Translations under genes and position numbers: made by a program
The notes under the pieces: model-generated
The model's input: the letters and a program-made list of their open reading frames with translations, nothing else
Databases searched by the model: none
What the model was told of the DNA's origin: nothing
Origin: Candidatus Saccharimonadota bacterium
GTDB lineage: Bacteria; Patescibacteriota; Saccharimonadia; Saccharimonadales; UBA4665
DNA length: 64,000 bases
NCBI GenBank assembly: GCA_013289705.1
Contig: JABCZM010000002.1
Location: 14,848 to 78,847, forward strand
Direction of reading: 5' to 3'
Shown: piece by piece, positions 27,260 through 29,906 of the stretch
How positions within the stretch are numbered: the stretch's first letter is position 1
Layout: every line of letters starts with the position of its first letter

Positions 27260-29098
27260 ATGTGCGGTATTGTAGGCTACATTGGCGAACAACCTAAAGC
27301 GCTCAACGTCGTACTCGACGGCCTGAGTGCGCTTGAATATCGTGGCTACGATTCAGCGGGCGTGGCATATTTGGACAACAAAAAGCAACTGCTGCTCGAC
27401 AAGCAAGTTGGACGCGTCCAGGGGCTGATCGATAGCTTAGGCGGCGCTGATTTGCCGCCAACCACCACGGCCATTGGCCACACTCGCTGGGCAACCCACG
27501 GTATCCCAACCATTCCAAACGCTCACCCACAAAGCAACACCGATAAAACCATCATGGTGGTCCATAACGGCATTATCGAAAACTATAGCGAACTACGCGA
27601 TCATCTGGAAAAGCAAGGTTACAAATTTGTGTCCGAAACCGACACAGAAGTAATCCCCCACCTGATTGATTTTTATACCCGCACTACAACATCGTTTGTC
27701 GAGGCGTTCGAACAGGCCTTGCACCAGCTGCGCGGAGCATACGGCATCGTGGTAGCTACGTCAGCCGAGCCAGACACACTGTACGCTGCCCGACTCTCAA
27801 GCCCACTGGTGTTTGGCGTCGCCGAAGATGCCTTAATTGTAGCATCGGACCCGTCCGCCATCATGGAACACACCAAGAAAGTAATCTATTTGAACGACTA
27901 CGAGTTTGTTTGTCTGCATAGCGATGGCAGTTACGATATCAAGGATTTTGAGCATGACACCGTGGTGGAACGCGAAGTCGAGACATTGGAATACGATGCA
28001 GCACAGGCATCACTGGGTGACTACCCACACTTTATGCTCAAAGAGATCTTTGAAATCCCCGCAACGCTACGTTCGGCCACATTGGGACGCATTAAATTAG
28101 AGAGCAACACCGTAAAATTAGGTGGCCTAGAATCTGTCGCCGAACAGCTAAAGTATATTGATCGGATTGTGATTGTGGCCTGCGGCACGGCATCATATGC
28201 TGGCATGTACGGCGAATATTTGATAGAGGAACTAGCGGGAATTCCGGTGGAAGTTCAGCAAGCCAGTGAATTTAAATACCGCAACGAACCGTTTTCCCGC
28301 AGCACCGCGCTGATTGCCGTTTCCCAGTCCGGCGAAACCGCAGACACCATTGCCGCTTTGAAAAAAGTTGAAAGTTACGGTGTACTGCGTTTAGGTGTTA
28401 TTAATGCCGTGGGCAGCACCATGACCCGCATGACCGATGCTGGCGTCTATTGCCACGCCGGACCAGAACAAGCAGTTGCCAGTACCAAGGCGTTCTTTGC
28501 ACAGGCAACCGTGCTGATGCTGATTGGCCTGTACCTAAGCAATGGCCGCTCAGAAATCTACAAGCCACTTCTAGAAGAACTAGAAGCCCTGCCAAACAAA
28601 GCCAAACAAGTACTCGACCAAGCAGACAAGATTAAAGCACTGGCCGAAAAATACAAAGACAATCGAGACTTTATTTACATCGGTCGTGGCTATGCCTACC
28701 CCTGCGCACTGGAAGGCGCCATTAAGCTCAAAGAAATCACCTATATCCACGCCGAAGGCTACCCAGCTGGCGAAATGAAACACGGGCCACTGGCCCTGAT
28801 CGACGAAAACTTTCCGACCTTTGTGATTGCCACTGATTCTAAAGTGCTAGAAAAAACCTACGGCAGCATTCAGGAAATTCGTGCTCGCAAAGGCCCAGTG
28901 ATTGCCATCGCTACCGAGGGAAACACCGAAATCGCCAAACTTGCCGACGACGTCATTTATGTTCCTAAATCAATGGAGCAAACATCACCATTGCTCGCAG
29001 AAATCGTCATGCAACTCTTTTCATACTATGTTGCCGTAGCCAAAGACCTCAACGTCGACCGCCCTCGCAACCTTGCAAAATCAGTCACCGTCGAATAA
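27260..29098 (+). CDS. glmS: glutamine--fructose-6-phosphate aminotransferase (isomerising)
   Basis: MCGIVGY N-terminal nucleophile, two SIS domains, and a C-terminal ...LAKSVTVE. 612 aa. Confidence 0.97.
   Translation: MCGIVGYIGEQPKALNVVLDGLSALEYRGYDSAGVAYLDNKKQLLLDKQVGRVQGLIDSLGGADLPPTTTAIGHTRWATHGIPTIPNAHPQSNTDKTIMVVHNGIIENYSELRDHLEKQGYKFVSETDTEVIPHLIDFYTRTTTSFVEAFEQALHQLRGAYGIVVATSAEPDTLYAARLSSPLVFGVAEDALIVASDPSAIMEHTKKVIYLNDYEFVCLHSDGSYDIKDFEHDTVVEREVETLEYDAAQASLGDYPHFMLKEIFEIPATLRSATLGRIKLESNTVKLGGLESVAEQLKYIDRIVIVACGTASYAGMYGEYLIEELAGIPVEVQQASEFKYRNEPFSRSTALIAVSQSGETADTIAALKKVESYGVLRLGVINAVGSTMTRMTDAGVYCHAGPEQAVASTKAFFAQATVLMLIGLYLSNGRSEIYKPLLEELEALPNKAKQVLDQADKIKALAEKYKDNRDFIYIGRGYAYPCALEGAIKLKEITYIHAEGYPAGEMKHGPLALIDENFPTFVIATDSKVLEKTYGSIQEIRARKGPVIAIATEGNTEIAKLADDVIYVPKSMEQTSPLLAEIVMQLFSYYVAVAKDLNVDRPRNLAKSVTVE
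28997..29098 (+). repeat. direct repeat copy 1 (last 33 codons + stop of glmS)
   Basis: 102 nt, identical to 29805-29906 except at 2 positions. Confidence 0.9.
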
Positions 29099-29106
29099 CG
29101 TGACGA

Positions 29107-29136
29107 TTGACAATTAACACTGTTTTAGTGTACACT
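29107..29136 (+). promoter_or_regulatory. sigma70-like promoter TTGACA-N18-TACACT with ACACT/AGTGT inverted repeat
   Basis: TTGACA at 29107-29112 and TACACT at 29131-29136. The ATG at 29146 follows the -10 box by 9 nt, leaving a very short or no leader. Confidence 0.45.
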
Positions 29137-29145
29137 GGGCACACT

Positions 29146-29367
29146 ATGAAGAACATTACCCTCTCCGCCCCTGAAGCACTCATTGAGCAGGCTCGAAAAA
29201 AAGCAATTGCTAAGGGCACAACACTCAATAATGAGTTCCGTCTATGGCTGGAAGCGCAGACAGCGAACGGAGAAGAACGAGCAGCTCAATATAGGCAAGT
29301 CATGAAACGACTTTCGCACGTTAATGCTGGTCGTAAATTCACTCGTGAAGAAATGAACCAGCATTAA
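29146..29367 (+). CDS. small antitoxin (RHH/VapB-like) of the PIN module
   Basis: 73 aa starting MKNITLSAPEALIEQARKKAIAKGTTLNNEF. Sits 4 nt upstream of the PIN gene. Confidence 0.6.
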   Translation: MKNITLSAPEALIEQARKKAIAKGTTLNNEFRLWLEAQTANGEERAAQYRQVMKRLSHVNAGRKFTREEMNQH

Positions 29368-29371
29368 AAGC

Positions 29372-29800
29372 ATGACTACGGCAGGTAAGACTTTTTTCGA
29401 TACTAACATACTGGTGTACCAATTTGACCATACAGCCCCTACGAAACAAAAGCAGGCTCAGACACTCATAGAGCAAAGCATTTCGAAAAAACAGGCAGTT
29501 ATTAGCTCGCAAGTCGTCCAAGAATTTATGAACGTCGGGTTAGGAAAATTTAGCAGCAGGCTATCAGTCGATGAACTGGAGCTTGTCATGGCACAGATTT
29601 TAAAACCACTCTGCCAACATATTCCGACATTTGACTTCTACGAGCGAGCACTTACCCTATATAAATCAAATAGTTTGAGCTTATACGATGCACTTATTAT
29701 CCAAGCGGCCATAGATTTGGGTTGTAAAACGCTCTACAGTGAAGATTTACAAGACGGCCAGCAGTTTGGCACGCTAACGATTACAAACCCCTTCTCCTAA
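29372..29800 (+). CDS. vapC: PIN-domain toxin (VapC-like)
   Basis: 142 aa. [12 protein letters not shown] (first Asp), QEF..., and [23 protein letters not shown] (C-terminal acidic residues). Confidence 0.8.
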
Positions 29801-29804
29801 ACTG

Positions 29805-29906
29805 GCAGAAATCGTCATGCAACTCTTTTCATACTATGTTGCCGTAGCCAAAGGCCTCAACGTCGACCGCCCTCGCAACCTTGCAAAATCAGTCACCGTC
29901 GAATAG
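29805..29906 (+). repeat. direct repeat copy 2: orphaned duplicate of the glmS 3' end (non-functional relic)
   Basis: Would encode [33 protein letters not shown]. Has no upstream reading frame. Confidence 0.9.

Follow-up and report, generated by a model that had tools for sequence, protein, structure and literature searches.

A near-identical copy of the glmS 3' end behind a vapBC cassette in a Saccharibacterium, probably a scar of recombination with one-sided homology

A 64,000-nucleotide (nt) stretch of contig JABCZM010000002.1 (assembly GCA_013289705.1), hereafter the window, derives from a Saccharibacterium (Saccharimonadales) that we call lineage A. In this window, the end of an intact glmS gene recurs downstream as an orphan tail, and a vapBC-type toxin-antitoxin (TA) cassette lies between the two copies. 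We consider that the duplication is probably the scar of a recent recombination event with one-sided homology, which would have required no dedicated mobile element. This reading draws on the near identity of the two copies, on a related lineage that carries the same cassette without the duplication, and on comparable scars at other loci.

Structure of the duplicated glmS tail

The locus, from glmS to the convergent gene at its right border, comprises the following features.

27260-29098 (+): glmS, intact, 612 amino acids (aa), with Pfam SIS and GATase_6/7
28997-29098 (+): repeat copy 1, the last 33 glmS codons and TAA, with Asp at the variable codon
29107-29136 (+): promoter-like TTGACA-N18-TACACT, putative; the same site is found in lineage B (L084, see below)
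about 29118-29130: CACT...AGTG palindrome over the spacer and the -10 hexamer, a probable operator
29146-29367 (+): vapB-like antitoxin gene, 73 aa, essentially leaderless, with a role suggested by its place 4 nt upstream of the PIN gene
29372-29800 (+): vapC, PIN-domain toxin, 142 aa (Pfam PIN, E = 5e-9)
29801-29804 (no strand): ACTG, putative illegitimate junction between the vapC end and the orphan tail; similarity to glmS begins at 29805, or at 29802 with one mismatch
29805-29906 (+): repeat copy 2, the orphan glmS tail, with Gly and TAG, out of frame with vapC
29942-30160 (-): orf72, Phd/YefM-like antitoxin remnant (PF02604) with a 14-aa in-frame deletion and without a toxin partner
30168-31247 (-): manC-like nucleotidyltransferase, convergent with glmS, right border of the variable spacer (Pfam NTP_transferase and ManC_GMP_beta-helix)

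The two tail copies are in direct orientation and agree at 100 of 102 positions, with a sharp loss of similarity at both edges. An initial annotation, made from the DNA letters alone, had reported that the last 33 glmS codons plus TAA recur at 29805-29906 with two differences; we confirm this, except that the first difference, placed there at repeat position 49, is actually at position 50 (A29046/G29854), where it exchanges Asp for Gly. The second (A29098/G29906) exchanges TAA for TAG. The copies are spaced by exactly 706 nt, the orphan tail beginning 4 nt past the vapC stop codon, and they form the only repeat of that size in the window. A 98% match across 102 nt excludes a chance origin of the repeat.

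Gly is the consensus at the variable codon, being present in 70 of 78 relatives. Lineage B combines Gly with TAG in its tail, and lineage C (L176) combines Asp with TAA. The two positions at which the copies differ therefore also vary among natural alleles, which is consistent with each copy having come from a different allele. The Asp/Gly and TAA/TAG states were also tried as a guide to the native copy, and were rejected for this use because both states are present among relatives (lineages B and C).

Two further observations concern the glmS end itself. Its last approximately 50 nt (29050-29098) share 86-89% nt identity with plasmid-borne glmS of Rhizobium, Mesorhizobium and Tsukamurella, forming an island of DNA similarity across phyla, while among the close lineages A to D this end is no better conserved than the remainder of the gene. 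In addition, a 741-aa GlmS from a 3.1-kb contig of an NCBI metagenome-assembled genome (P0132) has about 129 internal residues duplicated in tandem and in frame; the duplicated segment, DNTKALLGDYPHF...EDYGVLR, is present twice, as either a real duplication or an assembly error.

The vapBC module and orf72

The 706-bp insert contains vapB and vapC and no mobility genes, and it appears to be a standard vapBC-type module, with the antitoxin assigned from its context. The elements named in its initial description as a self-contained unit, namely the promoter-like site, the small inverted repeat, the 73-aa open reading frame (ORF) and the 142-aa PIN protein, were all located. The 73-aa ORF starts 9 nt past the -10 hexamer and has no match in Pfam or NCBIfam. 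Promoter-like sites show no excess in the sequence over shuffles; the TTGACA-N18-TACACT site and its overlapping palindrome are conserved in a relative with 74% identity. In VapC, the acidic residues D10, E51, E124 and D125 are invariant and D106 is nearly so among 24 homologues. A total of 1116 VapC homologues were found, which, where named, are mostly from Saccharimonadales.

The nearest relatives of orf72 are 55-56% identical, 86-88 aa long and named as prevent-host-death antitoxins, and orf72 is predicted to be a decayed antitoxin. The locus contains an intact TA pair and a decayed one, with the glmS-tail copy between them.

The closest non-syntenic homologues of the cassette (L087-L089, VapC 72-77% identical) are located between rnpA and dnaA in the origin region of other Saccharibacteria, where they adjoin a second PIN pair. 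The 3' end of the window (jag, 63597-63911) is likewise near the replication-origin region. A distant vapBC homologue (43-47% aa identity) was found in another lineage (L156), 16-710 nt past glmS on the minus strand, in inverted orientation.

Age of the cassette and of the duplication

In lineage B (L084-L086), which is present in two of the samples that hold lineage A, the gene order is glmS-vapB-vapC-28 nt-manC. The cassette is equally far from the glmS stop codon as in the window, and the 28-nt vapC-manC spacer shows no trace of the tail copy or of orf72. At the protein level, lineage B shares 85% identity with the window for GlmS, 86% for VapB (the 73-aa antitoxin ORF), 85% for VapC and 78% for ManC. 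At the nt level, identity is even, with 74.2% over glmS plus vapBC and 73.3% over manC, indicating that the cassette has diverged along with its flanks. Relative to lineage B, the DNA specific to lineage A is 29801-30167, that is, the orphan tail, 35 nt and orf72. Moreover, the tail copies of the window match each other at 98%, against a divergence of about 25% for that tail between lineages A and B. Because lineage B shares the cassette position with even divergence and without the duplication, the vapBC cassette at the glmS stop codon appears to be old, and the 98%-identical duplication appears to be young and lineage-specific. The initial proposal of an insertion that keeps glmS intact and leaves an orphaned tail thus stands for the geometry, and lineage B speaks against its other part, the arrival of the cassette together with the duplication.

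The glmS-manC spacer is variable in the loci compared. The empty sites anticipated by the initial annotation, with glmS joined to its downstream gene, were found in at least eight lineages (L008, L093, L104, L113, L142, L144, L166 and L176), in which glmS and manC are 5-22 nt apart: the gap is 22 nt in lineage C (L176, GlmS 84% identical) and 5-9 nt in seven others. These empty junctions are known only from lineages with about 70-77% nt identity, none of them within the species. Further lineages carry sugar-metabolism genes in this spacer. A TA toxin directly follows glmS in only about 5 of 134 lineages, a frequency comparable to the general TA load, so the location at glmS seems incidental; on the same count, the region downstream of glmS was rejected as a special TA hotspot.

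An older origin of the repeat, in which vapBC entered a glmS-orf72-manC arrangement in the ancestor of lineages A and B and formed the duplication at that time, is in our judgement quite unlikely. Gene conversion would have to have kept the tails of lineage A alike, and lineage B would later have deleted both the orphan tail and orf72. Such a history needs no more events than a recent one, it accounts for the identical cassette position in both lineages, and gene conversion is possible for direct repeats of about 100 nt. However, the crisp repeat edges and the 100/102 identity are hard to reconcile with the approximately 25% divergence of the same tail between the two lineages, and the 28-nt spacer of lineage B retains nothing of the tail or of orf72. 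Furthermore, for repeats of this length at a spacing of 808 nt, deletion is commoner than conversion.

Gene-tail copies at other loci

A second site with a duplicated gene tail is located near the 3' end of the window.

62161-62178 (+): copy 1, the last 4 codons, TAG and AAT of an acyltransferase_3 gene, GAAGAGGCATTTTAGAAT
62264-62929 (+): cargo, a MazE/AbrB-like antitoxin (62264-62506) and a PIN toxin (62510-62929) (Pfam; NCBIfam AbrB)
62928-62945 (+): copy 2, the orphan 18-nt tail GAAGAGGCATCTTAGAAT, 17 of 18 positions identical, over the PIN stop codon
63121-63366 (+): older MazE-like antitoxin downstream of the second orphan tail (Pfam MazE_antitoxin, E = 2e-10)

The initial annotation had pointed to the same geometry at 62161-62945. 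A similar one is indeed present, with the acyltransferase tail recurring at the PIN stop codon, but it is only 18 nt long; this tail has two matches against 0.02 expected. No intact toxin follows the 63121-63366 antitoxin, and stop codons are present there in all frames. Significant flanking repeats were found at two of the six TA cassettes of the window, and the four other TA loci have none.

Upstream of the second cassette, the acyltransferase_3 gene is broken into two ORFs (60991-61755 and 61786-62175, both +), which match profile positions 3-211 and 241-320, as in a frameshifted pseudogene or a sequencing error. The second-site MazE-like antitoxin is 79% identical to its counterparts in other Saccharibacteria (62264-62929 compared with L089:967-1638 and L087:3003-3674), and the adjacent PIN toxins share 37-38% identity. 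The conserved MazE beside a diverged PIN suggests partner swapping within TA modules.

Additional cases of gene-tail duplication were found at three loci in a comparison set of about 1.2 Mb of Patescibacteria loci. At L061, a 274-nt copy of the glmS tail (99% identical) lies 2.4 kb downstream of the full glmS. The copies enclose a 606-aa gene without a known family and a metK tail, truncated at its 5' end, with 84% identity to the resident metK, and this foreign metK tail abuts the glmS-tail copy back-to-back at an imperfect microhomology (GTTCG.CGA.CGCT.CG). The L061 glmS copies are identical up to position -12, followed by four synonymous differences and the stop codon. By all appearances, L061 is the product expected of a foreign 'glmS tail - cargo - metK tail' segment with one homologous and one illegitimate join. 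At L045, a 21-nt copy encoding KSVTVE-stop, with synonymous changes only, follows a ParE-like TA pair. At L037, a copy of a glycosyltransferase tail (80% identity) follows an AAA_14/DUF4143 ATPase gene. The repeats in the examples other than the window glmS are 18, 21, about 113 and 274 nt long and stem from different genes.

In a strict scan of 1052 ORFs, tail copies were detected only at the window glmS and at L045, against about 0.03 expected by chance. None of 80 further metagenome glmS loci showed a tail duplication. By a rough count in this glmS-centred sample, tail scars occur at 3 of about 160 glmS genes and at about 2 in roughly 900 other ORFs; scars may be disproportionately frequent at the glmS tail. 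A 31-nt repeat after glmS at L079 was rejected as a scar, as it is merely the shared N-terminus of two paralogous epimerases. Taken together, gene-tail scars are real and recurrent, yet rare, and enclose cargo other than TA pairs too. The suggestion of a TA-specific process is contradicted by the 606-aa unknown protein at L061, by the AAA_14/DUF4143 cargo at L037 and by the window itself, in which only two of six TA cassettes are flanked.

L045 also contains, between glmS and the ParE-like TA pair (5839-6042, -), a 67-aa ORF beginning MVEHIHRRHNKSLLVYHVVCPVKYRR. It has no Pfam match and appears to resemble the N-terminus of an IS200/IS605 TnpA.

Proposed origin of the duplication

The mechanism that we infer for the glmS locus combines two unlike joins, and no simpler scheme accounts for all the examples. 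A DNA segment from a close relative would join the chromosome by homologous exchange within the glmS 3' end, and the opposite end of the segment would be joined illegitimately, either without homology or at a microhomology. This could take place by two routes: 1) the fragment would circularise, and a single crossover would then integrate the circle, duplicating the homologous stretch around the cargo; 2) in homology-facilitated illegitimate recombination, the free end would land upstream of the anchor. Either route would yield a tail-cargo-tail arrangement. The outcome would be two alternative glmS-manC spacer alleles stacked one behind the other, that is, the old, intact vapBC and the decayed Phd-like antitoxin orf72. 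As for the junctions, L061 has one homologous and one microhomology junction, and the left junction of the window, at the glmS stop codon, lies within homology.

With regard to polarity, we favor the entry of a [glmS tail + vapBC] segment into a glmS-orf72-manC chromosome, in which case the orphan tail would be the recipient's own, because the cassette is the intact, addictive part and because the orphan copy at L061 and L037 is contiguous with native downstream DNA. In the reverse polarity, an incoming [tail + orf72] segment anchored in manC would give the same product. Natural transformation is the likely uptake route; Saccharibacteria are naturally competent (PMC10633639). Once in place, vapBC would act as an ordinary type II addiction module, with the PIN RNase neutralised by VapB, which would also auto-repress the module. 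Post-segregational killing by VapC would then oppose loss of the cassette through recombination between the 102-nt repeats. The established behaviour of type II TA systems is the basis for this selection against cassette deletion.

Several points weigh against this origin. With only two differences between them, the copies cannot be proved to have come from two alleles. Both cargoes of the window end 0-4 nt from the toxin stop codon, which is tidier than random breakpoints would be; the spacer available in lineage B, only 28 nt long, softens this objection. Lineages A to D are about equidistant (70-77% nt identity), so the old age of the cassette is read from equal divergence and not from a resolved tree. 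Natural competence has been shown for cultivated Saccharibacteria, other than this organism. Finally, the duplication is present in every lineage-A contig that spans the site, and no parent with more than 90% identity, whether glmS-orf72-manC or glmS-vapBC-manC, was found. In searches for an empty or unduplicated allele of the same species, exact-protein look-ups with GlmS, VapC, ManC and orf72 returned only the duplicated arrangement; the closest matches were 73% identical in one genome scan, 83% identical in one metagenome scan and 85% identical (aa) in a GlmS homologue search.

A bolder version, in which the tail-cargo-tail unit would propagate itself, seems unlikely to us. The end of a housekeeping gene would then serve as a portable homology arm for a TA pair or another selfish gene, which would invade naive competent Saccharibacteria, be amplified or released through the repeats, and be kept by addiction. 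This corresponds to the life cycle that Kobayashi's group proposed for restriction-modification systems, without experimental proof of release. In that case, orphan gene tails would document transformation-driven gene gain in Patescibacteria.

Mobile elements and dedicated mechanisms

In agreement with the initial annotation, which had noted the lack of a transposase or integrase, none was detected in the part of the window from about 2.7 to 56 kb, as judged by its Pfam-annotated genes. Viral contigs contain no relatives of VapC, matches on plasmids are restricted to the conserved glmS end, and neither Rfam families nor a transfer RNA gene were found at the glmS site.

Direct repeats with a replaced 3' end of the target gene match the geometry of site-specific integrative elements, and TA modules tend to outlast the decay of such elements. 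Nevertheless, it is very unlikely that the locus is the remnant of an element that brought a replacement glmS 3' end and has since lost all but its TA pair. The unit and its neighbourhood have no integrase among their annotated genes, the cargo fills the interval to within 4 nt and leaves no space for the rest of an element, and no viral or plasmid relatives exist in the contigs searched. In addition, lineage B has the same cassette at the same place without repeats, and the variation in repeat length (18, 21, about 113 and 274 nt) and in target gene is unlike a fixed att core. A site-specific element or a cis-mobilizable element (CIME) was rejected on the same two grounds, the absence of an integrase from the annotated genes and of a fixed att core.

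The initial annotation had also suggested a recurring, undescribed way in which TA cassettes are inserted at gene ends. We give little credence to a dedicated mobility mechanism that would insert TA cassettes at stop codons and duplicate the gene tail. Two cases in one window and a third with TA cargo at L045 speak for it, as does the tight fit of both window cargoes between the stop codon upstream and that of the toxin. However, the same scar encloses non-TA cargo at L061 and L037, four of the six TA cassettes in the window have no flanking repeat, and the repeats range from 18 to 274 nt with no common junction motif. Homologous cassettes near dnaA and rnpA (L087-L089) likewise have no flanking repeats in locus-wide self-comparisons. 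Nor is the geometry undescribed, as it is found in published work on restriction-modification systems (PMC2853133) and on recombination in E. coli (PMC3240628).

Three other candidates were rejected. Tn7 and its attachment site attTn7 do not apply, since there are no tns genes, no Tn7 ends or inverted repeats at the cargo ends and no 5-bp duplication; the initial view that the locus is not Tn7-like is upheld by a 102-nt duplication that starts at the stop codon and by a cargo of vapBC only. An integron gene cassette is contradicted by the glmS coding sequence after vapC and by the lack of an inverted-repeat site and an integrase. A phage or plasmid origin fails because no VapC relative occurs in viral contigs and the plasmid matches cover only the glmS end.

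Presence in independent assemblies

The same structure, 99.9-100% identical, is present in independently assembled contigs from JGI 3300020752 and ENA ERZ27253567 (175 kb), and a 175-kb contig of JGI 3300050821 has it according to its gene table only. Shortened contigs (JGI 3300020799, JGI 3300020807 and Logan SRR8441322) agree as far as their sequence extends, and the exact GlmS protein is present in five contigs. The Logan contig, assembled at k=31, ends inside the orphan tail, as is expected there of a true 102-nt repeat. An assembly artefact, that is, a collapsed or chimeric repeat from co-assembled strains, is a negligible possibility: although the source data are metagenome assemblies and the Logan contig breaks within the repeat, two assemblies of up to 175 kb, both checked by sequence, share the same junctions, a third matches by its gene table, and the repeat, at 102 nt, does not reach the k=141 that the name of the ENA contig (k141_) implies.

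Other features of the window

The window has a considerable number of further TA loci and three features of other kinds.

10979-11565 (-), 18353-19051 (+), 59333-59957 (+) and 63121-63366 (+): other TA loci, in this order MazE with Fic/Doc, a 92-aa protein with PIN, MazE with PIN, and a solitary MazE-like antitoxin
57651-57761: 11-nt units (TATCGCCCCGA and TATCGCCCGTT) in a run, followed after 56 nt by an exact 33-nt repeat
21482-21630 (-): cobalamin riboswitch (Rfam RF00174), scoring 33.2 bits where the gathering threshold is 31.5
19718-21280 (-): 520-aa gene without a Pfam family, downstream of the riboswitch

Together with orf72 and the two cassettes described above, there are seven TA or TA-remnant loci in 64 kb. 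The repeats at 57651-57761 are located between an SLFN_AlbA_2/HATPase_c_4 gene and a glycosyltransferase gene.

Comparison with known systems

Elements such as e14 in icd, and ICESt1/ICESt3 and CIMEs in fda, supply a replacement 3' end for their target gene. They share with the window an intact target and a near-identical orphaned 3' end as a direct repeat, whereas the window has neither an integrase nor further element genes, and its examples have no fixed att core. Tn7 carries tnsABC(D/E) and end repeats, makes a 5-bp duplication and inserts some 25 bp beyond glmS. What the window has in common with it is limited to the neighbourhood of the glmS 3' end, and the insertion in the window starts at the stop codon.

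Arrays of orphan immunity genes and 3' ends in T6SS, Rhs and CDI loci show sequential displacement that has been attributed to homology-facilitated illegitimate recombination (Kirchberger et al. 2017, PMC5361080). In these arrays, a new module enters beside a conserved upstream gene, and the older one is pushed downstream, keeping its antidote and losing its toxin (PMC5361080). The toxin-less leftovers of the window, orf72 and the 63121-63366 antitoxin, are parallels to this, while the displaced piece in the window is a near-identical tail of a housekeeping gene and not a variable toxin domain. Homology-facilitated illegitimate recombination itself was reportedly described by de Vries and Wackernagel in 2002 and by Prudhomme et al. 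in 2002.

In E. coli, 56 of 60 clones obtained with substrates of one-sided homology had duplicated 109-950 bp of the homologous gene end, by a single crossover with a truncated circle (Amarir-Bouhram et al. 2011, PMC3240628). As in those clones, a homologous junction within a gene end would be paired with an illegitimate one, which in L061 lies at a microhomology. Unlike that work and its kin, which used laboratory selections in E. coli, Acinetobacter and Streptococcus, the event in the window is deduced from its product alone.

The likeness is also close to long target duplication (Nobusato et al. 2000; Furuta, Abe and Kobayashi 2010, PMC2853133), with which the window shares an addiction-type pair between long direct repeats. 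Restriction-modification systems were found there within target duplications of 46-423 bp, without mobility genes, mostly in naturally competent species and by an unknown mechanism, and the repeats sometimes overlap the 3' end of the neighbouring gene (PMC2853133). The criteria used were an insert of less than 20 kb with a complete selfish pair and no mobility genes, a direct duplication of more than 30 bp, and an empty site in a close relative (PMC2853133). At glmS, the insert is 706 bp with vapBC only and the duplication is 102 nt; at the second site, the 18-nt repeat falls short of the required length. In contrast to the published cases, a type II TA pair forms the cargo, the organism that carries it is a Saccharibacterium, and the cassette exists at the same site without the duplication in another lineage.

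The finding thus reveals no new mechanism, and the rearrangement is most likely of a known type and not a new way for TA cassettes to move. It provides a concrete, datable example of accessory-gene addition in Patescibacteria, whose genomes are tiny and poor in classical mobile elements and whose natural competence has now been recognised. In the orphan tail, the event has left a record of its junctions: two spacer alleles appear to be stacked, and an intact TA pair stands beside a decayed one. An orphan gene tail after accessory cargo is a simple sequence signature that can be surveyed genome-wide. In comparison with the systems above, the glmS locus would extend long target duplication from restriction-modification to TA systems and to a new phylum.

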